Source of the DNA: Escherichia phage vB_EcoP_G7C
Direction: 5' to 3' (one strand)
Sequence record: NC_015933.1
Length of the DNA: 64,000 bases
In this document: one piece after another, positions 2,477 through 61,771 of the stretch
Position numbering within the stretch: the first letter of the stretch is position 1
Layout: each line of letters starts with the position of its first letter
Program-made: the position numbers and the translations under genes
The notes under the pieces: generated by a model
Databases searched by the model: none
What the model was told of the DNA's origin: nothing
The model's input: only the letters and a program-made list of their open reading frames with translations

Positions 2477-3651
2477 TGAATAGTATACCTACGCATACTC
2501 TCACTGATGAACGGTTAATGAGGGAGTACGATAGAATACAAGCGCAGGCATTTCTCGGACGTAGTGCAGCGTTTTTTGGTTCATTGCTGTGTAGTCTTAA
2601 GTTCTCATGGAAACGTGAGGGCTGTCCCACTGCATGTACCGACGGGATAGAACTCCATTTCAACCCAGACTTCTTTATCTGGATGTGTCCTGATGCAAGG
2701 GAAACAGTGCTAATGCACGAACTTTGGCATGTGGCATATCTGCATGGAATCCGTTGTGGAAGCCGTGATCCAGAAGTCTGGAACCAGGCATGTGACCACT
2801 TCATTAACCTTCAGTTAGAGGAAGATGGTTACAAGTTCACTGGTATCGACAAAGGCATTTGCAAAGACCCTCAATATAAAGGATGGGTCGAAGAAGACAT
2901 CTACGATGACCTGATGAAGAACCCTCAGAAAAGGCAGAAGCCGTCGGGGGGAGCTGGAGCAGGTCTTGCTGGCGACATGAAAGCTCCCTCTTCGGGGCAG
3001 TCCCAGGGTGCTGTTGTCAACAACGTAGTACGTGCAATACAAAGCCAGAAGATGGCTGGTGGAACGATGCCCGGTAAAGGTGCTGGTCGTATGGAAGAGG
3101 TTATTACCCAATTCCTTAAACCAGTGGTTCCGTGGCAGGAAGTCCTGATGAACTTCTTTACCGACATTGATGATACGCATTATACGTGGGCCAGACCCAA
3201 CCGTCGTTTCACTGACGTCTATCTACCTTCTCTGGAAGATGATGAAGGACGTTTACGACACTTAGCCTATTTTGAGGATGTATCCGGTTCTATTAGTAGT
3301 GCTGACTCTCTGCGTTTTAACTCAGAGGTTGCCTACGTTAAGAGCCAGTTCAATCCTAAGAAGATGACCCTAATTACCTTCGACGATATTATCCAAGAAG
3401 AAATAGACATCACTGAAGAAGATACTTTTGAAGAGATTAAGATTACTGGACGAGGGGGTACAAACCTTGAACCAGTGCGTGAATGGATTATTAAGAATAA
3501 GCCAACCGCTGCAATCATATTCTCTGATATGTATGTTCGCCCTATGGAAGATTTACCATTTGATATTCCTATCATCTGGTGTGTTCTGAATAATCCTAAT
3601 GCTACCGTACCTTTTGGGGAGGTAGTTCATATCCCTAAAGGAATGAAATAA
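2476..3651 (+). CDS. VWA-domain protein with N-terminal HExxH metallopeptidase-like domain (partner of the MoxR-like ATPase)
   Basis: HELWH zinc-binding-type motif near N-terminus; MIDAS-like DVSGS; start overlaps HNH stop (TAATG). Confidence 0.8.
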   Translation: MNSIPTHTLTDERLMREYDRIQAQAFLGRSAAFFGSLLCSLKFSWKREGCPTACTDGIELHFNPDFFIWMCPDARETVLMHELWHVAYLHGIRCGSRDPEVWNQACDHFINLQLEEDGYKFTGIDKGICKDPQYKGWVEEDIYDDLMKNPQKRQKPSGGAGAGLAGDMKAPSSGQSQGAVVNNVVRAIQSQKMAGGTMPGKGAGRMEEVITQFLKPVVPWQEVLMNFFTDIDDTHYTWARPNRRFTDVYLPSLEDDEGRLRHLAYFEDVSGSISSADSLRFNSEVAYVKSQFNPKKMTLITFDDIIQEEIDITEEDTFEEIKITGRGGTNLEPVREWIIKNKPTAAIIFSDMYVRPMEDLPFDIPIIWCVLNNPNATVPFGEVVHIPKGMK

Positions 3652-50484: not shown

Positions 50485-50985
50485 CTATTCAAAAAGTTTA
50501 CGGTCAGCCTGAATTTGTTTACCCAACTCAATTAGTTGGTTGTCACGGAGTCTAACAGTTGCCCGGAGTTCTTCAACCAAACGTCTGCCTTCTTCAAGAC
50601 TGTTGTCGAGTCTGGCTGCATGGCTTGCAAGACTTCTGCACTCAAGGGTTCCGGCTTCGGCTTGACGTTTATATACCGATGCTCGTCTTTCAGACTGTTG
50701 CATCCGGCTGTCGTAATCACTACTAACGCGAGCAAGCTCGCTTGCGTAATTACTCTCAGCCGTCTGCAACCGGGAAGTGAGTAACCCGACTTCATAACTA
50801 TGGTTTCTTTGGAGAGCATTGTATTTGTCCTGTAGTTCTTGCGTTGCCTTCTGATCTTCAACCTTTTGGGCATCCCACTTCTTTTGAACAGTAGACTGTC
50901 CATTGGAATTACCCCAAAAGTAAATGGTGGCCCCGAGGACCACCACCAGAAGATAAGGCCAACCTTTAGAGATTAGCATCTTCAT
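50485..50985 (-). CDS. i-spanin (Rz-like): N-terminal TM anchor plus periplasmic coiled coil
   Basis: ATG at 50985 with TGGAGG RBS; TM segment [17 protein letters not shown]; remainder charged, helical, Q/E/R-rich. Confidence 0.7.
50532..50819 (-). CDS. o-spanin (Rz1-like lipoprotein) embedded in the i-spanin gene in another frame
   Basis: Signal peptide with lipobox-like …[14 protein letters not shown]; short Pro-containing mature part; entirely inside 50485-50985; start could be 50819 or 50795. Confidence 0.55.
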   Translation of the reverse strand: MLSKETIVMKSGYSLPGCRRLRVITQASLLALVVITTAGCNSLKDEHRYINVKPKPEPLSAEVLQAMQPDSTTVLKKADVWLKNSGQLLDSVTTN

Positions 50986-51601
50986 TACATGCCTCCAGTG
51001 GTACATTACCGATTCGGTTAGCTACCCAACCATACGTAAAGTCTGGCATGTTCAATGAGGTGTAGTGGTTCAATTGTTTAGCATCAAGCAACTTAATCAT
51101 TACCTGACATGCTGCAACTTTGCCTCGTTTTTTCTGCAATGCTTTATATGCATTAACAGTACCTGCACCGACTTTACCATCAACTTGTACTTTAGGGTAG
51201 TCTTTGCCATTACGGGACATTTCATTAAGAGATTGCTGCAACCACTTAGCTGGTCTGGTTACACCGGTATTAACACCAGCATCAACCAGTTTGTATGTTA
51301 CAGCAGGAGATATATCAGCGAAGGCTACGAAGTTAGGTTTAATAACGTAGTCATCAATGTATATCTCAGCAGCCATCTCTTTCGATAAACCTTTCATGGA
51401 ACCATCCCAACCATACTCAGTAGCCAGAACTTCTTGGTGAGACTTAGCTACTGAATGGGTAATACCATGATTAGTTTCCCCACCTGGGTCACGAGGATTG
51501 TTTACGTACCCTCCTTCCATATAGAACACTGCCCCCAGAATAGCAGCGATAACTCCTCCCACTGCACCCCCTTTTGCAGCAAGTTTCTGTTTAGCTTTCA
51601 T
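50966..51601 (-). CDS. Endolysin: GH108-family N-acetylmuramidase with N-terminal signal-anchor (SAR-like) segment
   Basis: GH108 signature EGGYVNNPRDPGGETNHGIT; N-terminal Gly/Ala-rich hydrophobic stretch GGAVGGVIAAILGAVF; AAGGAAG RBS. Confidence 0.85.
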   Translation of the reverse strand: MKAKQKLAAKGGAVGGVIAAILGAVFYMEGGYVNNPRDPGGETNHGITHSVAKSHQEVLATEYGWDGSMKGLSKEMAAEIYIDDYVIKPNFVAFADISPAVTYKLVDAGVNTGVTRPAKWLQQSLNEMSRNGKDYPKVQVDGKVGAGTVNAYKALQKKRGKVAACQVMIKLLDAKQLNHYTSLNMPDFTYGWVANRIGNVPLEACNEDANL

Positions 51602-51851: not shown

Positions 51852-52168
51852 GCGAATATCTCCCGTCTTGCAGCAGCCAATACACCAATAATTGCACCTG
51901 CCCCAGCCCACACCCACTTACCAAAAATTCCAGCACCTGCAACCTTATGTTTAATGGTGATGAACTCTTCGATGGTAGGTTCAGACTTAGTGATGCTCTC
52001 CTCTACCCGTCTAAGTCGGGTACTAAGATCACCCATAGACTCGCTTAGCTTTTTAATAGACTCTTCCATTTTCTCCCTATCCCTCGATTCACGAGTTTGG
52101 TTTTCGAAAATGTTTCTCAGTCTCTCTTCAAGTCTGGCTAGAGTTACGTTATCTGGTTCATTTCCCAT
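51836..52168 (-). CDS. Coiled-coil protein with C-terminal Gly-rich TM anchor (holin/antiholin-like or tail-associated)
   Basis: Charged helical N-terminal region, C-terminal GAGIFGKWVWAGAGAIIGVLAAA. Confidence 0.45.
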   Translation of the reverse strand: MGNEPDNVTLARLEERLRNIFENQTRESRDREKMEESIKKLSESMGDLSTRLRRVEESITKSEPTIEEFITIKHKVAGAGIFGKWVWAGAGAIIGVLAAARREIFAWFTS

Positions 52169-52240
52169 AGGGATTTTCTCAGGTTAGTTAAGTCGTAATT
52201 GACTGAAACAGTCTACATAAAGGTTTGATTGGGGTACAAC

Positions 52241-52264
52241 AAAAAAGCCCCTCCCTCATGGGCT
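52241..52264 (-). terminator. Rho-independent terminator (minus strand)
   Basis: Stem AGCCC/GGGCT; on the minus strand followed by T6. Confidence 0.55.
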
Positions 52265-52290
52265 TCGAAGATTAAATACTTTTTCTGATG

Positions 52291-52316
52291 ATAAAAATAA
52301 CCCCGCCGAAGCGGGG
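52291..52316 (-). terminator. Terminator/attenuator hairpin downstream of the 851-aa tailspike gene
   Basis: 16-nt hairpin CCCCGC-CGAA-GCGGGG followed on the minus strand by a T-rich run; near-identical copy at 54927-54943. Confidence 0.55.
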
Positions 52317-52344
52317 CATAATTTTAGTTAACTGCTATGCCAGA

Positions 52345-54900
52345 TTAGCCCACATTACCAATAGTCATGCTGTACTCAAGAGTAAATAACTGACTAGAAG
52401 CAGACGGGTTATATAATCCTACATAACCAGAGGTAGCTACAGTAGTAGAGAATGCAGACGTAGTTGCCGTGCCATCATCTGACTCTACAGTAAAGGTATG
52501 AGCACCAGTAGAGGAGGAAGTATATTCCCATACTTTAAAGCCTTTATCTTCACGAGTAGTATCACCAAATACTACCCAGTCAGTTGGGTTAGCATTGTTG
52601 AACGTACCGATGCACATATTACCTGCAGCATTCACACCGACTAACACACCAACATTAGTAAGTGGGTTATAGTTAAGTGCAATATAGGTGTTTTTCTTAA
52701 GACCTCTCGGTACAGCCAGATAACCTACAGATGCACCATTATAAAGGTGAGAGTCTGCGGTTTTACTGAACTGAGTACCAGACAAAACTTCACCAAATAC
52801 ACCATAGTCATTGGCGTTAGACTGCTTCATTACTGGAGCAGGACGGGTCATGTTAGGTTCTTTGCTAAGACGAACCATCGGCAGCTTAACCCCATCCGTT
52901 TTGTAAGAACCAAACTTCAGCATAGGGAAGTAAGCATCAGTAGGACTACCATCAATGATATAACGGATAAAGTTCAAACCTTTACGTAATCGCCCCATAT
53001 AGGTAGTAAGGGTTTTGCCACCCCCAAAGTAACTCATGGCAGTCTTGCCATTAAGCACGGTGCGGTAGGCATTAATTTGAGTATTACGTTCTTGGTATTC
53101 ACCGGACTCAAACAATGCTTTGCCCACAGGAGACTCAACACGGATGTTGTGGGATTGCCCAACAACGGCAGCATTAGTCCATGGTTCTAGAAGGGATACA
53201 GTCATACCTTCTTCTTCACACCATACCATTGTGGTCATGGTTACATTTTCATTAGTTACACACTTAGACAGAAAACGGAATACGTTCAGAGCAGGAGCAC
53301 CAGATACAGGTACATACTGTGGTGCATAGTGAGTACCGGAAGGATACCCTACACAATCCCAATAGTTTTCTACAGCAGCCTGAGTGAGCATATCCCCCGG
53401 TCTAACACGACGACAGTACTTATTACCAAGGGTCTGCATATACATCGCATTACCCATAGCCATTTGTCCAAGTTCTTGTGGGTGAGTAGTATCCCAGGTT
53501 CCATCCTTCTTAACATAGTAGTAGTACCCAGTTTGCTCATTGCGGCTACTTGCACTAGTCAGATTTGGTCCCAAGTTAAAATACTCAACACCTAGTTTAT
53601 CTGCCATGTACTTCTTAGTACTAAGCTCAAATGCCATACGTACTGAGTCATTATCGTTGACTGTTACAATACCAACGGCACAACCGTAGCCCCATGCTTT
53701 ACGAACAAACTTGTCAATCTGGTCACGGTAGGTAGCGATACTAGCACTACTGTCATTCCAACCCATTGCAAGGATACATACACGAGGAGCTTCTGCACCA
53801 TAGCGTGTGTTACCGAAGAACCCACGGTCGAAGTTACGATAACCCCAACCGTCGGATAACTTCTTACCAGATACGGAACAGTTAGCTGATTGGTAAATAG
53901 TTTCACCACTACGACGAGACTGTGTGAGCAACAAGCCATTCATCCAGTGTTCAGTCCATGAGTGGGAACCCCCAGATAAAGAATGATTGTATGTACTTGG
54001 GGCATCTAAGTCACCATCTGAGTTAGTTGGCGGAGAACTCCAATCCTGTTTACCCCATGCACCATCAGTAATGGAATCGCCAATGATACCGATACGACAA
54101 AATGTCTGGTCACGGAATGCACAGTATATTTCGTCATTAACGGTTTTATTGTTACCATTCATTGAAGCAGCAATGTCAAACGTATGGTCCTTTGCATACC
54201 ACTGGTTTTTAACAATAAGTTTGCCTTCCCCAACAAACTTACGGACATCATCATCGGGTAGTAAGTTACAACGAATGGTAACACCATTAGGGATAAAGAT
54301 TTTACCGGGGAAAGCATAAGCAGCTGCACGGTTATCCGTAGTAGTATTAACAACAATACCAGGAACATCATATACGGAAGTAGAACCAACAGGAGGAATT
54401 AGACCATTGTTTAATTCTTGTCGTATTAATTCATCATTAGCAATAACCCATGCAGTGGGAGAAATACCACCTGCACTAACCGGGGTAGAGTTAAGTGGTA
54501 CGCTCTTGGGTAACCCACCAGCCCAGCGATACTGCGTGCCATTATGAGTAAGCAATTCATTCTTGGTCTGTATAACTGAGCCAGAAGTAAACGTATCCGG
54601 TAAAGTTACATATTCTTTGCGAGTAACAGCTAATGCACCTAAGTCCACGCTACCAGCAGAGTGAACTAATACACCAGCAGGACTAAGGCTTATAGCAGTA
54701 ACACCTGAACCAATGTTAGCAGGTAAGGAATAAGCACGCTGTGTCCCTTTGTCGTAGATGACTTTGTAACCACTTAGTACAGCACCCACTGAGAAGTAAA
54801 CAACCTCAGATTGTTTAACCCCAAAGTGACGTGCTATTGCTTGTTTATTGGTTAGGATTCCTGTTGAACCCTTACCGCCTTGTGAGAACATTTCGTTCAT
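52345..54900 (-). CDS. Tailspike with SGNH/GDSL esterase domain (candidate surface-polysaccharide deacetylase)
   Basis: GDSL block RIGIIGDSITDGAWG (Ser at nt 54073-54081); N-terminal ~160 aa similar to an internal domain of the upstream 1063-aa tailspike; AAGAGG RBS. Confidence 0.85.
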   Translation of the reverse strand: MNEMFSQGGKGSTGILTNKQAIARHFGVKQSEVVYFSVGAVLSGYKVIYDKGTQRAYSLPANIGSGVTAISLSPAGVLVHSAGSVDLGALAVTRKEYVTLPDTFTSGSVIQTKNELLTHNGTQYRWAGGLPKSVPLNSTPVSAGGISPTAWVIANDELIRQELNNGLIPPVGSTSVYDVPGIVVNTTTDNRAAAYAFPGKIFIPNGVTIRCNLLPDDDVRKFVGEGKLIVKNQWYAKDHTFDIAASMNGNNKTVNDEIYCAFRDQTFCRIGIIGDSITDGAWGKQDWSSPPTNSDGDLDAPSTYNHSLSGGSHSWTEHWMNGLLLTQSRRSGETIYQSANCSVSGKKLSDGWGYRNFDRGFFGNTRYGAEAPRVCILAMGWNDSSASIATYRDQIDKFVRKAWGYGCAVGIVTVNDNDSVRMAFELSTKKYMADKLGVEYFNLGPNLTSASSRNEQTGYYYYVKKDGTWDTTHPQELGQMAMGNAMYMQTLGNKYCRRVRPGDMLTQAAVENYWDCVGYPSGTHYAPQYVPVSGAPALNVFRFLSKCVTNENVTMTTMVWCEEEGMTVSLLEPWTNAAVVGQSHNIRVESPVGKALFESGEYQERNTQINAYRTVLNGKTAMSYFGGGKTLTTYMGRLRKGLNFIRYIIDGSPTDAYFPMLKFGSYKTDGVKLPMVRLSKEPNMTRPAPVMKQSNANDYGVFGEVLSGTQFSKTADSHLYNGASVGYLAVPRGLKKNTYIALNYNPLTNVGVLVGVNAAGNMCIGTFNNANPTDWVVFGDTTREDKGFKVWEYTSSSTGAHTFTVESDDGTATTSAFSTTVATSGYVGLYNPSASSQLFTLEYSMTIGNVG

Positions 54901-54926
54901 ATAAACCTCTTTGTTTTTCTAAGAAA

Positions 54927-54943
54927 CCCCGCCGAAGCGGGGG
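54927..54943 (-). promoter_or_regulatory. Intergenic hairpin between the two tailspike genes (attenuator or processing site)
   Basis: CCCCGC-CGAA-GCGGGGG, same hairpin as 52301-52316. Confidence 0.5.
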
Positions 54944-54947
54944 TATT

Positions 54948-57900
54948 CTACCTGATAATGAACTTACCGAGGCTCATATCATTTATCAGAGTTGCAACTA
55001 TGTTTGCCAGTTGGGTGGTTGTTAACGTGTTCACATCACCACCACGCAACTGTCCGGCGTTTGTGAATGGGAACTGCTGAGGCTGAGCGCTATTGTAAAA
55101 CTGGTTCCCCTCTTCATACCGAGAAGACGGCGTAGAAGTGTAAAGGATTCCTTTAGTAGTCGCAGGAACAGAACAATTCACGATGTTTACATGACCAGCG
55201 ATGCCAACGCACTCGATAGGGCGATCAACAGTACCAAACGGTTGAACACCAACCAGGCGATGCACGTTCAAGCTCTGAGCTGCCTGCGCGTACAGATAAG
55301 AACTAGGCTGCCCGTTAACACCTCTGATGTTCCAGTTGTCTACTTCAATGTGTCGGGCATTATGAATCTGACAGATTGCTTGACCGTCTGCATCAGGAAA
55401 TGCACCAACAATACGCACGTTCTTCATAGTGATATCGGAAGTAGCTGTTGCGTTCAACCCGCAGTTAATCATAACAGCTTTAGAACCAGATTGTGTGCAG
55501 TGGATTGTCAGCCCGTCGAATTCAATATCGCCTAGATTTACTGTGTGAGAGGAGCCATCCTTACGCAAAAAGAATACAGCCCAATCTGTGTGTCCTGTTA
55601 TTAAGATATTACTAAATCGCAGGCGTGTGCAGACTACCGGATAATATCGACAGAGGATTGGCTGTGAACAATTCTTGATTGTGATGTTGTCATACGTGAC
55701 ATCACTGGAACCCTCAATCGCAATACCCGCATTACATGCTTCAATGTAAGCACCGGTCACACTTCCGTTGGTGAAGTTTGCGCGGATGCCATGCGATTCA
55801 CAGTTCTTAATTGTTACGTTGCTAATGTTGACGCGAGTAATTGCAGTACCATTACCACCACCAACGCCAGTAACCAAATCTTCAGACTGAAGACGCAAAC
55901 CGTTACCGCCGGACCCATTAATACTAATATCATGAATCATCACATTAAGCGTGCGACCGGGACGTGCTGAAGTCATAAACACAGAAGATGCCCATGTGTC
56001 TCTAGTACGGATATGATGTATATGTGCTTCTGTTGCGTTCCCAACAATAATCGCCATGCCCTGACGGTTGCTGCCGTCCGGCTGTTGGATTTCTCCCCGC
56101 CCACAATCGTGAGAATACAAGTTGTTTGCAAGCGCCCATCTTCCATAATCCATTGTTACGTTACTGTTCCATGCCCCCTGCAATTCACACCCAGAAAGCT
56201 CAAGCGTACCAGCAGATTGCATAGCCAACCCAACGCCAGGGTCAAATGACGCATCCTGTCGGTAGAAATCAAAAAGGAAGTTACCGACAATGCGGATGTC
56301 ATAAGGGGTATAGTCATATTCATTGTTTGTATCATTCCATGTTCTCGGTGAACGCAGCCAGAACTGACGTGAATCTACCGTCACTTTCGGTAATAGCGGT
56401 TTGAGGTGAATATCCCCCTGGATGGTGAATATACCCTCAACTGTAACCGGTGAATAGCCAATGTAAATATTACCTGCCTTTGGTAGTAGGCGTGAAAGCT
56501 GCGCATCGTTCTGCGCAATCTTCCAGCCAGTGATCACTTCGTTGAAGAACGAAGCCGGATATAGCTCGTGAGCGCCGTTAATGACGGTCTGGTCGAAACT
56601 GGTGACTGTCACAGATGACGTAAGCGCGGAACCCAACATCATCAGATTGCCACTCACCCTGACAAACAGTACTCCTGACGGAATAACATCACCGACAGAC
56701 AACGAACGGTTATTTTCTGTTGGGAAGCACGAACCACCGTAAAAACCTGATGGTATGTTGGTGGTAAAACTATTGTATTCTACCCAGGCGTTTGCCGATA
56801 CTCCGCCAGTATTTATCGGCGTAGAGTTAGCCCCCACTGTTTTTGGTAAGGTTCCACCCCAGGCGTAGCACTGACCAGCAGCAACATGCCATACGACATC
56901 TAATTTGCTAGTAACTGTTGCACCCTCCTCAAAACTACCATCAACAAGCGTTAAGCCAGCCTCTGCAAGACTACGACGCCATAGTTCTCTGGTATTTCGC
57001 TGTTGGTAGGAATCCAGCAGAGTAACAGTAATATTTCCGGGGGAATAAGTTAACTGCCCATTGGAGACAGCGTTGATGTAAACATTAGTAGGTAGAGTGG
57101 GTAACCCATAAATGTGTTGTGTAACTACATCATAAATTACCTTCTTACCATTAAGTACCTGAGTAGTATCCGTACTAAGGATTACTTCAGAATCTTTTAC
57201 GTTAGCTGCACGAGCCACTTCCTGAATAGTGTGGTCTGTTATTTCAAGTACCTTAGCTTCCCCGCCCAACTGAACAATAAGACGATCATTCGTAGCCAAG
57301 GGTTCAGTAAGAAGGATTCGGTTATTGTCTGAGTCAATCGTATAGGAGTTATTAGTTAACCCTTTATGGAAACGTAAACCATTCTTGTATACAGCAGGTA
57401 CAGCCTGGAAAGTGAAAGGAATATCAATTACCTGCTCCCCACCAACAGCAGCACCATGATTGTACAACCAGTTAATAGTTACCCAGTCGGATACGTTAGG
57501 GTTATCCGGTGTAGCAGGAACACCTGTACGCATAACAACAACAAAGTCACCCTGCTCCAGTGGAGTAGTAAACTTAATCTCAAAAGCTACTGGGTCATAC
57601 TCAAAATCGTAACCCTCAGTCTGCCAATCACCATTAACAATCATAAATGGTGCACCAGCCGTTTCATCAGGGATACGAATGGTAGTCTCACCTCCATTAG
57701 CTGAACCAGAATTATAAATCCAGGGGATGTAGCCACCATCGTTAGATTTATCAGCACCAGTATCCGAACCGGTAGTAGCTACCTTAACCCACGAACCAGT
57801 TGCAGTAGTATCGTCTGGTAGGATACCGGTACGGTCACCCTCTACGTACAAGTAGTCAGTAACCTGACGGTCACCAGCAGGAGTCTTGTCATAGATACGA

Positions 57901-58139
57901 GCAAAGGAGGCCTTAGTAGTTAACGCCTTAAGCTCTGCCTCAGACTGTACACCTAGAACCATTCCATACTGGTTCAGGAAATCATAGATAAGTTTTAGGT
58001 TACCCAGGTTACAGTAGACAGTACGAACCACATGGTAAGCATTACCGAGTAGTGCATCTACCATTGGGTCGTTGGATTTATTCTGGCAGTAAGGATTGGA
58101 CCAATCCTGATTTGCATCGAAGGGGGTATGTGCGTTCAT
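54948..58139 (-). CDS. Tailspike/tail fibre with tandem N-terminal particle-binding domains and C-terminal right-handed beta-helix (depolymerase-like)
   Basis: ATG at 58139 is 6 nt after GAGG (ORF-track ATG 58145 lacks spacing); two repeated N-terminal modules (IPWIYNSGSANGGETTIRIP / INWLYNHGAAVGGEQVIDIP); C-terminal beta-helix-like repeats (NVTIKNCESHGIRANFTNG…TYDNITIKNCS). Confidence 0.85.
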   Translation of the reverse strand: MNAHTPFDANQDWSNPYCQNKSNDPMVDALLGNAYHVVRTVYCNLGNLKLIYDFLNQYGMVLGVQSEAELKALTTKASFARIYDKTPAGDRQVTDYLYVEGDRTGILPDDTTATGSWVKVATTGSDTGADKSNDGGYIPWIYNSGSANGGETTIRIPDETAGAPFMIVNGDWQTEGYDFEYDPVAFEIKFTTPLEQGDFVVVMRTGVPATPDNPNVSDWVTINWLYNHGAAVGGEQVIDIPFTFQAVPAVYKNGLRFHKGLTNNSYTIDSDNNRILLTEPLATNDRLIVQLGGEAKVLEITDHTIQEVARAANVKDSEVILSTDTTQVLNGKKVIYDVVTQHIYGLPTLPTNVYINAVSNGQLTYSPGNITVTLLDSYQQRNTRELWRRSLAEAGLTLVDGSFEEGATVTSKLDVVWHVAAGQCYAWGGTLPKTVGANSTPINTGGVSANAWVEYNSFTTNIPSGFYGGSCFPTENNRSLSVGDVIPSGVLFVRVSGNLMMLGSALTSSVTVTSFDQTVINGAHELYPASFFNEVITGWKIAQNDAQLSRLLPKAGNIYIGYSPVTVEGIFTIQGDIHLKPLLPKVTVDSRQFWLRSPRTWNDTNNEYDYTPYDIRIVGNFLFDFYRQDASFDPGVGLAMQSAGTLELSGCELQGAWNSNVTMDYGRWALANNLYSHDCGRGEIQQPDGSNRQGMAIIVGNATEAHIHHIRTRDTWASSVFMTSARPGRTLNVMIHDISINGSGGNGLRLQSEDLVTGVGGGNGTAITRVNISNVTIKNCESHGIRANFTNGSVTGAYIEACNAGIAIEGSSDVTYDNITIKNCSQPILCRYYPVVCTRLRFSNILITGHTDWAVFFLRKDGSSHTVNLGDIEFDGLTIHCTQSGSKAVMINCGLNATATSDITMKNVRIVGAFPDADGQAICQIHNARHIEVDNWNIRGVNGQPSSYLYAQAAQSLNVHRLVGVQPFGTVDRPIECVGIAGHVNIVNCSVPATTKGILYTSTPSSRYEEGNQFYNSAQPQQFPFTNAGQLRGGDVNTLTTTQLANIVATLINDMSLGKFIIR

Positions 58140-58846
58140 CGCCATCCTCGTTGTTCAAATTTAGTTTCGGTAATTGAAATACTTCCATTAGCCAGGTCGT
58201 AATCAACAACCTCACCACAGATGCTTTCATACGTTTGCAGATACTCTGCTGCTTTAGCGTTAGCTTCAGGTGTATTCAAACCAGTGTGGTAACGATAACC
58301 CACCCAGTTATGAAGTGCCGTCATTAGCGTATCAGCTAAATCAACTTCCTGTTCTTCATCACCCGTAAGAACTGGGTGCTTAGCTTGATACGTTACGTTA
58401 AGTGCCTCGAAGTGTCGAGGTCGCATACACTGAATAGTATCAGGCCGTGGGGTGAAAATAGCATGGGGGTCTGAGTCGTCGTTCAGTCTACGTCGATTCC
58501 CCGAGTTATCAAACACATTTAAGATTTTAATAACATCATCCTGGAAAGGTTTCATGAACCCATCCATGATGTACGGATATTGGACCTCAAGAGTAGGCTT
58601 AGTAAATTTGGAGTAAGCATATTTGGATTGAAGAGGATAATCAGTACGCCCTTCCTTCATCTCCACAATGCAGCTATTTGTCTTAAGAGGGAAACGACTA
58701 TGCAGTCGTACCAGTCCTTCATTAATAGCAGCCAGTATCTCCGGCTTACTATCTGGTTCAATATCTAGTCTGTCATCCGTGACTGCACCAGTACCTTTTA
58801 AGGTACTTAGTGCTAAGCCACGGTATACTTCCGATAATTTCTGCAT
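58136..58846 (-). CDS. Virion structural protein (hypothetical)
   Basis: GAGGAA RBS; stop overlaps tailspike start (ATGA). Confidence 0.65.
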   Translation of the reverse strand: MQKLSEVYRGLALSTLKGTGAVTDDRLDIEPDSKPEILAAINEGLVRLHSRFPLKTNSCIVEMKEGRTDYPLQSKYAYSKFTKPTLEVQYPYIMDGFMKPFQDDVIKILNVFDNSGNRRRLNDDSDPHAIFTPRPDTIQCMRPRHFEALNVTYQAKHPVLTGDEEQEVDLADTLMTALHNWVGYRYHTGLNTPEANAKAAEYLQTYESICGEVVDYDLANGSISITETKFEQRGWR

Positions 58847-61735: not shown

Positions 61736-61771
61736 GGGGTAGGGTCGAGAGGCTCTACCCCATTTCTTTTT
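61736..61771 (+). terminator. Rho-independent terminator
   Basis: 7-bp stem GGGGTAG/CTACCCC followed by a T-rich run. Confidence 0.55.

Follow-up and report, generated by a model that had tools for sequence, protein, structure and literature searches.

Matching UUCG hairpins around the g63.1 tailspike gene of phage G7C as probable intrinsic terminators

In the 64,000-nucleotide stretch of Escherichia phage vB_EcoP_G7C analysed here (NC_015933.1; the window), the same GC-rich hairpin stands on either side of the tailspike gene g63.1 of this N4-like coliphage. Both copies are quite probably Rho-independent terminator hairpins, a leaky one in the gap between g66 and g63.1 (hairpin A) and a strong one past g63.1 (hairpin B), which forms a tandem with a further hairpin (hairpin C), and their common stem would come from a pool of hairpins shared among phages. 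The hairpins are real but ordinary and the new biology gained is little, the gap copy being already in the literature: hairpin A is the terminator-like stem-loop of G7C between g63.1 and g66 from Kulikov 2012, as cited in passages of Babenko 2019 (10.1101/542787). This assignment follows from the same g66-g63.1 gap, the same structure and the 851-aa ORF, which is 100% identical across 851 aa to PDB 4QNL (G7C gp63.1, tail fiber protein). The passages on G7C in Babenko 2019 make no mention of the stem being repeated after g63.1 (10.1101/542787).

The repeat and its genomic position

The exact 16-mer CCCCGCCGAAGCGGGG occurs twice in the window, at 52301-52316 and 54927-54942, and no further copy with up to two mismatches was found in it; 100 dinucleotide-preserving shuffles yielded no match. 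The identity extends over 18 nt (AACCCCGCCGAAGCGGGG; 52299-52316 and 54925-54942), beyond which the flanks diverge, ruling out a larger duplication or a mobile element as the source of the repeat. Both hairpins read in the same sense as the tail genes; hairpin A lies in a 47-nt gap (54901-54947) between two minus-strand tail genes (Table 1). The 1065-aa and the 851-aa ORFs both match PHROG tail families, and gp66 and gp63.1 have both been described as tail spikes in the G7C literature.

The first-pass annotation had described two hairpin copies sharing 18 nt, each forming a stem of 6 bp capped by a UUCG-type loop on the minus-strand transcript, one inside the 47-nt gap between the spike genes and the other past the second gene. 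The exact 16-mer at both sites, the folding and the ORF positions agree with this description. The coordinates of the copy past g63.1 were likewise correct, whereas the end given for the gap copy (54943) was off by one, its true end being 54942.

Table 1. Features of the tailspike region and their positions in the window.
Feature	Position	Strand	Basis
g66-type gene of 1065 aa (tail spike/tail protein), the upstream member of the pair	54948..58145	-	ORF list; PHROG 12242 tail protein full-length; Pfam Tail_spike_N
Hairpin A, CCCCGC-UUCG-GCGGGG, 5 nt past the g66 stop, in the 47-nt gap	54927..54942	-	sequence, fold
Hairpin A U-tract UUUCUUAG, weak, interrupted, 5/8 U	54919..54926	-	sequence reading
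Translation-initiation block UAGAAAAACAAAGAGGU, conserved, directly before the g63.1 AUG (54900-54898)	54905..54921	-	alignment of relatives
g63.1 esterase tailspike gene, 851 aa	52345..54900	-	PDB 4QNL 100% identity; Pfam G7C_C, G7C_GBD, Gp63_3rd_G7C, Lipase_GDSL
Hairpin B, (G)CCCCGC-UUCG-GCGGGG(U), 28 nt past the g63.1 stop	52300..52317	-	sequence, fold, orthologous annotated terminators
Hairpin B U-tract UUAUUUUUAUC, 7/8 U	52290..52300	-	sequence reading, terminator scan
Relic of a convergent ssb gene (its final ~10 codons)	52258..52288	+	similarity to phage Skate
Hairpin C, (G)AAGCCC-AUGAGGGAG-GGGCUU(U) running into U6, ~35 nt past hairpin B	52240..52266	-	fold, sequence

Architecture and predicted action of the hairpins

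In the minus-strand RNA, a cUUCGg tetraloop closes an all-GC stem of 6-7 bp at each copy (-12 to -14 kcal/mol, with about -12 kcal/mol for the bare hairpin), and in 56- and 66-nt contexts a single dominant hairpin with no competing fold was obtained. Both copies possess the GC-rich sense-strand stem-loop of an intrinsic terminator and both are intergenic, located shortly after a stop codon. The U-tract is full for hairpin B (UUAUUUUU) and marginal for hairpin A (UUUCUUAG). Rough d'Aubenton-Carafa-type d-scores, calculated with modern energy parameters, amount to +13 for hairpin A and +23 for hairpin B, and to -27 and -37, respectively, on the opposite strand. Hairpin A thereby exceeds the terminator threshold, and the gap hairpins of most relatives score at or below it. 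Hairpin C alone is weak (d-score about 0). Its 3' arm and U-run GGGGCUUUUUUGUUGUACC are also present in the Gamaleyavirus relatives L126 and L131, where this is the sole terminator past the spike gene.

With the GC stem, the extra-stable tetraloop, the 3' U-tract and the site after a stop codon, the G7C hairpins share the common features of E. coli-type intrinsic terminators with a cUUCGg loop. Hairpin B, UUAUUUUU and the second hairpin with its U-run together have the appearance of a canonical tandem intrinsic terminator. Hairpin A differs from the canonical form in its interrupted U-tract and in the ribosome-binding site that follows directly; it would be a partial terminator at best and, together with UUUCUUAG and the ribosome-binding site, looks like a leaky one. 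An ARNold-called terminator of PhAPEC7 (KF562340) is orthologous to hairpin B and shares its downstream sequence, but has a longer stem and a CGAA loop; ARNold did not call the PhAPEC7 gap hairpin that is equivalent to hairpin A. An Rfam scan of 52100-55100 on both strands returned only a sub-threshold snoRNA chance match.

Late genes of N4-like phages are transcribed by E. coli RNA polymerase, which would be the enzyme on which both hairpins act. Late transcription of g69-g66 proceeds leftward (minus strand). At hairpin A, the stem and the interrupted UUUCUUAG probably stop only a fraction of the polymerases; the hairpin may also shield the upstream message at its 3' end. The remaining polymerases would read through into g63.1, whose AUG lies 31 nt off behind an A-rich/Shine-Dalgarno block. 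Since hairpin A precedes the start by this short distance, read-through would be needed for gp63.1, barring an unrecognised promoter; a sigma-70 scan, uninformative on this point with 18 sites versus 34 expected from shuffles, gave no convincing site in the stretch from hairpin A to the AUG. Hairpin B, with the same stem and a proper U-tract and backed by hairpin C and its U6, would then close the tail-gene unit and, together with hairpin C, insulate the lysis cassette (g63, holin, endolysin).

A leaky terminator followed by a strong tandem one would give the adsorption-gene unit of G7C-like phages the same layout as in N4 and LUZ7. In N4, tetraloop hairpins with poor U-tracts occupy g66|g65 and g65|g64, and g64|g63 has a strong hairpin with U5 ahead of g63. 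N4 thus shares the gene-order positions and the weak-then-strong pattern with G7C, although its stems are unrelated, its loops are of the GNRA type and other genes lie between g66 and g63. For the N4-like phage LUZ7, ONT-cappable-seq revealed that most terminators are leaky (efficiency <50%) with stepwise read-through, and that inefficient terminators within late structural operons tune transcripts, which is the logic proposed here (PMC9163698). LUZ7 belongs to another genus with another host and its sequence is unrelated; termination was measured for LUZ7, whereas termination, its efficiency and read-through at the G7C hairpins are predicted from sequence.

Occurrence in other phages and regulatory alternatives

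Elsewhere, the exact hairpin was found at 122 sites, which lie on 120 IMG/VR contigs and whose 5' flanks are unrelated, and 113 of the 122 sites have at least 6/8 T past the hairpin on the UUCG strand. Hairpin B is typical in this respect with 7/8, and hairpin A with 5/8 U is among the lowest 9 of the 122. Being common to unrelated contigs and mostly followed by a U-tract, the hairpin is generic and not tailspike-specific, and the "dedicated" signal suggested by the first-pass annotation is not supported.

In relatives a hairpin is kept at both positions via compensatory changes, usually with two different stems. Among 18 gap elements (N4-like, Ackermannviridae, Stephanstirmvirinae) 90.7% of the stem cells are paired and four of the six stem pairs have changed on both sides, a result that none of 500 shuffles equalled; the irregular gap variants of Bp4, L137 and Bas96 fold unaided. 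Unlike stems at the gap and the terminal position are present in PhAPEC7, AV101, Bas96 and Bp4, and the gap position in relatives usually carries CCCCUC/GAGGGG. The G-C stem allele occurs in the gap of G7C and of ECGD1, and the idea that it was unique to G7C was consequently dropped; the U-A allele is found at the terminal site in Bas96. As relatives usually possess two different stems, the identity of the two copies is not conserved. The expectation that the motif recurs in related phages therefore holds for the hairpin structure at both positions and usually fails for identical stems, and placement of the same hairpin behind each spike gene by design is not supported, given the different stems. 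Probably, the G7C stems are alike since both were drawn from a small, near-identical pool, CCCC[G/U]C-UUYG-G[C/A]GGGG, whose members would move with tailspike cassettes in horizontal exchange among enterobacterial phages. Stem identity is no evidence for one signal designed for two places.

A dedicated, duplicated signal after each spike gene that sets the gp66:gp63.1 ratio is very improbable. The identical 18-mers do lie on both sides of g63.1, and a leaky gap terminator would reduce g63.1 mRNA relative to g66, but the pair is not kept identical in relatives, the sequence is generic in unrelated phages, and copy B, as an end-of-unit terminator past the last spike gene, cannot set a two-spike ratio; the earlier idea that both copies adjust dosage is not borne out. 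Furthermore, gp66 and gp63.1 reportedly form a 1:1 complex, which, if right, leaves no obvious need for unequal dosage and favours equal supply. RNase processing, also proposed for the repeat, fares no better. T7-type RNase III sites have a double-stranded stem of ~20 bp or longer, often with an internal loop; the 6-7 bp found here are far too short and wider folds add a few weak A-U pairs at most, ruling out an RNase III site, with no support for RNase E cleavage either.

Of the attenuator idea, the part concerning copy A, with its weak U-tract and a start codon 31 nt on, is plausible if the word is taken loosely to mean a leaky terminator; hairpin B does not fit it. A regulated attenuator of the leader type was rejected, as there is no alternative pairing, the 47-nt gap is too small for a leader and no Rfam family matches. 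Virion-RNAP promoters of N4 are located on the early template strand of the early region; their 5-7 bp stem carries a loop of 3 nt, and the sequences flanking it are conserved. Such a promoter was ruled out by the 4-nt loop and by the location in the late minus-strand region at 52-55 kb.

The U-tracts of relatives differ between the two positions. Gap-type hairpins before the ribosome-binding-site block have 3-5/8 U in 15 of 16 cases (the exception being L135 with 7/8), and terminal hairpins past spike ORFs mostly have 6-7/8 U. The UAGAAAAACAAAGAGGU block itself is nearly invariant among 18 relatives from several phage lineages. A rather doubtful alternative takes hairpin A not as a terminator but as an element of mRNA stability or insulation, which would block 3'-5' exonucleases after cleavage in the AU-rich spacer or keep the variable 3' end of g66 off the g63.1 ribosome-binding site. 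It is in line with the weak U-tract that hairpin A shares with most relatives, with the uncalled PhAPEC7 gap hairpin and with the constant coupling of the hairpin to the conserved block irrespective of the upstream gene. In addition, the extra stability of a cUUCGg loop would be fitting for a barrier to nucleases. However, most relatives retain a run of at least three U soon after the stem (tail 3-7/8 U), a U-rich tail is unneeded for a pure stability role, and G7C hairpin A scores over the terminator threshold. The weak U-tract, the PhAPEC7 result and the low scores of the relatives nevertheless mark hairpin A as a possibly poor terminator; within the preferred reading it may terminate little and have mainly an RNA-stability or insulating role.

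Module exchange and the ssb relic

The surroundings of both hairpins are shared across phage families. AV101 (Ackermannviridae) carries a stem identical to hairpin B with homologous flanks; the complete Gamaleyavirus-type unit is present there, starting at the gap hairpin and including the first ~110 nt of g63. The C-terminal part of g66 has ~84% DNA identity to a gene of the Agtrevirus MK-13 (NC_049455: tail spike protein), and this homology ends 4 nt past the stop codon; MK-13 has a different hairpin downstream. The sole relative of the g66 C-terminus that was found has an unrelated 3' flank, and a donor search with the exact 26-mer joining the g66 3' end and the hairpin gave 0 matches in IMG/VR.

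Passages of Babenko 2019 propose a role in recombination for the gap stem-loop and describe g66 swaps bounded by it (10.1101/542787). The hairpins together with the ribosome-binding-site block would then be DNA recombination joints for receptor-binding modules, acting as short stretches of homology, as targets of nucleases or as barriers to Holliday junctions, with termination being secondary. Similarity to other phages sets in right at the 5' boundary of both hairpins, from query positions 119 and 135 on, and the homology to MK-13 stops adjoining hairpin A. The G-C and U-A stem alleles are a transversion pair without a wobble intermediate and both occur at both positions, a pattern suggestive of exchange, the crossovers lying within the hairpin or next to it. 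Hairpin A of G7C combines a terminal-type stem with a gap-type tail, AV101 holds the entire Gamaleyavirus-type unit, and the ssb relic shows that hairpin B moved along with a spike gene. On the other hand, selection alone predicts breakpoints at gene ends, as only intact genes survive, and with the hairpins 5-28 nt from the stops both kinds of breakpoint look the same. In N4, hairpins are likewise found in these gaps, between genes for which no swapping is known, 16-18 nt are short for homologous recombination, the hairpins come without an associated nuclease or site-specific system, and the strong strand asymmetry of the U-tracts indicates selection at the RNA level. With respect to both sides we consider recombination joints unlikely. 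A wider version, in which the hairpins and the block are crossover or nuclease joints of cross-family tailspike cassettes and the identical G7C stems are two insertion scars, is decidedly unlikely. If true, the recombination idea would account for hot-spot module exchange.

Read as joints, the elements would allow receptor-binding modules to pass among Schitoviridae, Ackermannviridae, Stephanstirmvirinae and Skate-like siphoviruses. For the engineering of tailspike modules in G7C-like, Ackermannviridae and rV5-like phages, the unit of hairpin - UAGAAAAACAAAGAGG - AUG ... stop - hairpin+U-tract should be retained as a whole.

The sharing of flanks across families and the ssb relic add detail on how spike cassettes travel. 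The window is 86.6% identical to Salmonella phage Skate (MH321493) over 67 nt spanning the terminator and the 3' end of ssb. In Skate, the annotated terminator after the tail spike gene is homologous to hairpin B; it differs from the G7C element by its UUUG loop and by an intact convergent ssb, the product of which ends in ...MDFDDSIPF, whereas in G7C only the fossil is left. The relic indicates that hairpin B formerly separated ssb from a tail spike gene and served both as a bidirectional terminator. LUZ7 likewise has bidirectional terminators between convergent genes (PMC9163698). In PhAPEC7, 27 codons of the ssb relic were identified, interrupted by in-frame stops.

The repeated hairpin and its fold

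As outlined in the table, the 16-mer CCCCGCCGAAGCGGGG occurs exactly twice in the window, and no further copy was found there at up to two mismatches or in 100 dinucleotide-preserving shuffles. Copy A lies inside the 47-nt gap between the two ORFs, 5 nt past the first stop codon, and copy B lies 28 nt past the second. The first-pass annotation, which had placed the same hairpin after both tailspike genes, was accurate in this respect, its sole error being the end coordinate 54943 (1 too high). The 851-aa protein is identical to PDB 4QNL, the G7C gp63.1 tail fiber protein (100%, all 851 residues), and the region gave a mosaic match to Gamaleyavirus (N4-like, G7C-like) coliphages such as PhAPEC7, ST4 and Bp4. 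Accordingly, the window belongs to G7C or to an almost identical phage of its set.

Reading of the sequence revealed 18 identical nt (52299-52316 = 54925-54942) with divergence beyond, therefore ruling out a larger duplication. These direct repeats lie 2626 nt apart on either side of g63.1; if they recombined or slipped against each other, the esterase spike would be deleted precisely and one hairpin left.

Features of the spike region and other late sites
Feature	Position	Strand	Remark
1065-aa ORF (g66)	54948-58145	minus	gp66-type tail protein
Copy A (hairpin A)	54927-54942	minus	
Initiation block	54905-54921	minus	UAGAAAAACAAAGAGGU
851-aa ORF (g63.1)	52345-54900	minus	G7C-specific Pfam domains and SGNH esterase domain
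Copy B (hairpin B)	52301-52316	minus	
Relic of ssb codons	52258-52288	plus	
Hairpin C	52244-52266	minus	~35 nt beyond copy B, running into U6 tract
Conserved block	52169-52243	minus	UUGUUGUACCCCAAUCAAACCUUUAUGUAGACUGUUUCAGUCAAUUACGACUUAACUAACCUGAGAAA
Terminator-like hairpin	50923-50947	minus	GGTGGTGGTCCTCGGGGCCACCATT
Terminator-like hairpin	61736-61761	plus	GGGGTAGGGTC...CTACCCC

On the mRNA strand each copy reads CCCCGC-UUCG-GCGGGG, a 6-bp GC stem (about -12 kcal/mol) with the extra-stable cUUCGg tetraloop. Copy B can form one additional G·U pair and is followed by UUAUUUUUAUC (7/8 U), while copy A is followed by UUUCUUAG (5/8 U) and then by AAAAACAAAGAGG-N7-AUG of g63.1. A simple terminator scan picked up both copies on the minus strand. 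On a d'Aubenton-Carafa-type scale A scored +13 and B +23, rough values obtained with ViennaRNA energies; read on the plus strand, the two hairpins scored -27 and -37. Just a handful of terminator-like sites were present in the ~34-kb minus-strand late region, and the scan gave none in the overlapping upstream genes g69-g66.

We consider it probable that B, together with C, acts as an end-of-unit intrinsic terminator and A as a leaky one. Expression of g63.1 would then require polymerase read-through of A. For the N4-like phage LUZ7, ONT-cappable-seq revealed leakiness and stepwise read-through at most terminators, and bidirectional terminators between convergent genes (PMC9163698).

Occurrence of the hairpin in relatives and unrelated contigs

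The exact 18-mer was found in at least 120 IMG/VR contigs. Among the IMG/VR matches listed, the 5' flanks of 122 sites were mutually unrelated, and on the UUCG strand at least 6 of the 8 nt after the hairpin were T at 113 of them, 2 T being forced by the search pattern and the others free; on the opposite strand the counts were scattered, mostly 2-5/8. The U-tail of copy A ranks with those of the weakest 9 of these 122 sites. Judged by unrelated flanks and recurring T-tract, the hairpin is of a recurrent canonical intrinsic-terminator type and not a tailspike-specific signal.

In PhAPEC7 the gap hairpin reads GGCCCCUC-UUCG-GAGGGG(UU), and the one past the spike gene, an annotated ARNold terminator, reads CUAGCCCCAC-CGAA-GUGGGGCUAG; Bp4, AV101 and Bas96 also carry a hairpin at both places, with differing stems. 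In these relatives a hairpin was kept at both positions, but the identical stem was not. Gap elements were drawn from GenBank relatives and from 29 IMG/VR loci at which the conserved N-terminal spike domain is encoded. The 18 distinct ones align as hairpin, U-rich spacer and an almost invariant UAGAAAAACAAWGAGGU block. Pairing of the 6-bp stem holds in 90.7% of the alignment cells and both sides have changed in 4 of 6 pairs, values equalled in none of the shuffles, and slid registers scored worse. Covariation lends the gap stem modest support, since one stem recurs in most of the sequences, but irregular gap variants also fold on their own. In the 18 aligned relatives the initiation block that precedes spike genes with an MNEMFSQG N-terminus hardly varies, and it spans Schitoviridae, Ackermannviridae and Stephanstirmvirinae (ECGD1, dw-ec).

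When all CCCCNC-N4-GNGGGG hairpins across these spike loci were tabulated, two classes emerged. The gap-type class, with the RBS block next, nearly always carries the U-A allele CCCCUC/GAGGGG and a weak tail (3-5/8 U in 15/16); the terminal class, past spike ORFs, carries mostly the G-C allele CCCCGC/GCGGGG and strong tails (6-7/8 U). A G-C stem in the gap is unusual, occurring in G7C and also in ECGD1 (a Justusliebigvirus). Given these classes and the differing stems of relatives, the identity of the two G7C copies is an accident of the alleles carried, not a conserved design. The proposed dedicated, duplicated dosage signal finds no support, as the sequence is generic and the duplication not conserved; nor can copy B affect how much of one spike is made relative to the other. 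An RNase III site is ruled out by the shortness of the stem, leaving the suggested RNase signal unsupported.

Babenko et al. (2019, bioRxiv 10.1101/542787) describe a terminator-like stem-loop between g63.1 and g66, credited to Kulikov 2012 and conserved in the G7C set, which bounds g66 C-terminal swaps; a role in recombination is speculated there. The feature is real, ordinary and already described; a literature search found no transcript-end data for G7C-like phages. That the hairpins also act as recombination joints, a reading compatible with the others, seems unlikely to us. Similarity breakpoints do fall exactly at hairpin edges; each of the two stem alleles is found at both positions although a transversion pair, lacking any wobble intermediate, separates them; and in hairpin A of G7C a terminal-type stem is joined to a gap-type tail. 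However, selection for intact genes predicts the same breakpoints, and hairpins also stand beside N4 genes not known to be swapped.

Layout in N4 and origin of the 3' flank

In N4 (NC_008720) different genes, g65 and g64, lie between g66 and g63, and the hairpin layout is nonetheless as in G7C. Each of the gaps g66|g65, g65|g64 and g64|g63 contains a GC tetraloop hairpin unrelated in sequence to those of G7C; the U-tail is poor in the first two and U5 in the last, mirroring G7C. Conserved positions with unrelated sequences argue for an RNA-level role in transcription or message stability. That A is mainly a 3'-end-protecting or RBS-insulating hairpin, which is compatible with leaky termination and the other readings, is improbable.

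Hairpin B and its downstream spacer (67 nt) are 86.6% identical to a segment of Salmonella siphovirus Skate. There the counterpart is annotated as a terminator and separates the tail spike gene from an ssb gene running towards it. Furthermore, the plus-strand relic aligns with the final codons of Skate ssb (...MDFDDSIPF*) and reads MGFED*; PhAPEC7 (L001, about 3505-3585) has 27 ssb relic codons with in-frame stops. By this comparison hairpin B is a former bidirectional terminator carried along with a spike gene, and the ssb fossil implies that the 3' flank of the spike gene derives from a junction of the Skate kind, 'tail spike -> terminator <- ssb'. Hairpin C shares its 3' arm and U-run (GGGGCUUUUUUGUUGUACC) with two relatives' loci (L126, L131), where it is the sole terminator past the spike gene, suggesting that the imported segment was joined inside the resident terminator. 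AV101 (Ackermannviridae; L123, OQ973471, 1740-4260) carries an entire Gamaleyavirus-type unit, from the gap hairpin and RBS block through the N-terminal domain, hairpin B (stem identical), the ssb relic and hairpin C, and continues beyond the tailspike gene into the first ~110 nt of an N4 g63 homologue. This segment is direct evidence that the complete cassette moved between phage families together with the hairpins on either side of it.

Other sites in the late region

The block that separates the terminators from g63 shows high conservation across PhAPEC7, Bas96, AV101 and IMG/VR Gamaleyavirus-like contigs. As a candidate it could serve the lysis cassette as late promoter or 5' UTR; a sigma-70 scan made no call in it. 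The strong plus-strand hairpin with its T-rich tail lies inside the minus-strand late gene block and may stop antisense or middle transcription entering the late genes. The minus-strand hairpin in the lysis-gene region overlaps the ORF 50485-51006, and an ARNold terminator annotated in PhAPEC7 between the N-acetylmuramidase gene and the gp60-like gene may be its equivalent.
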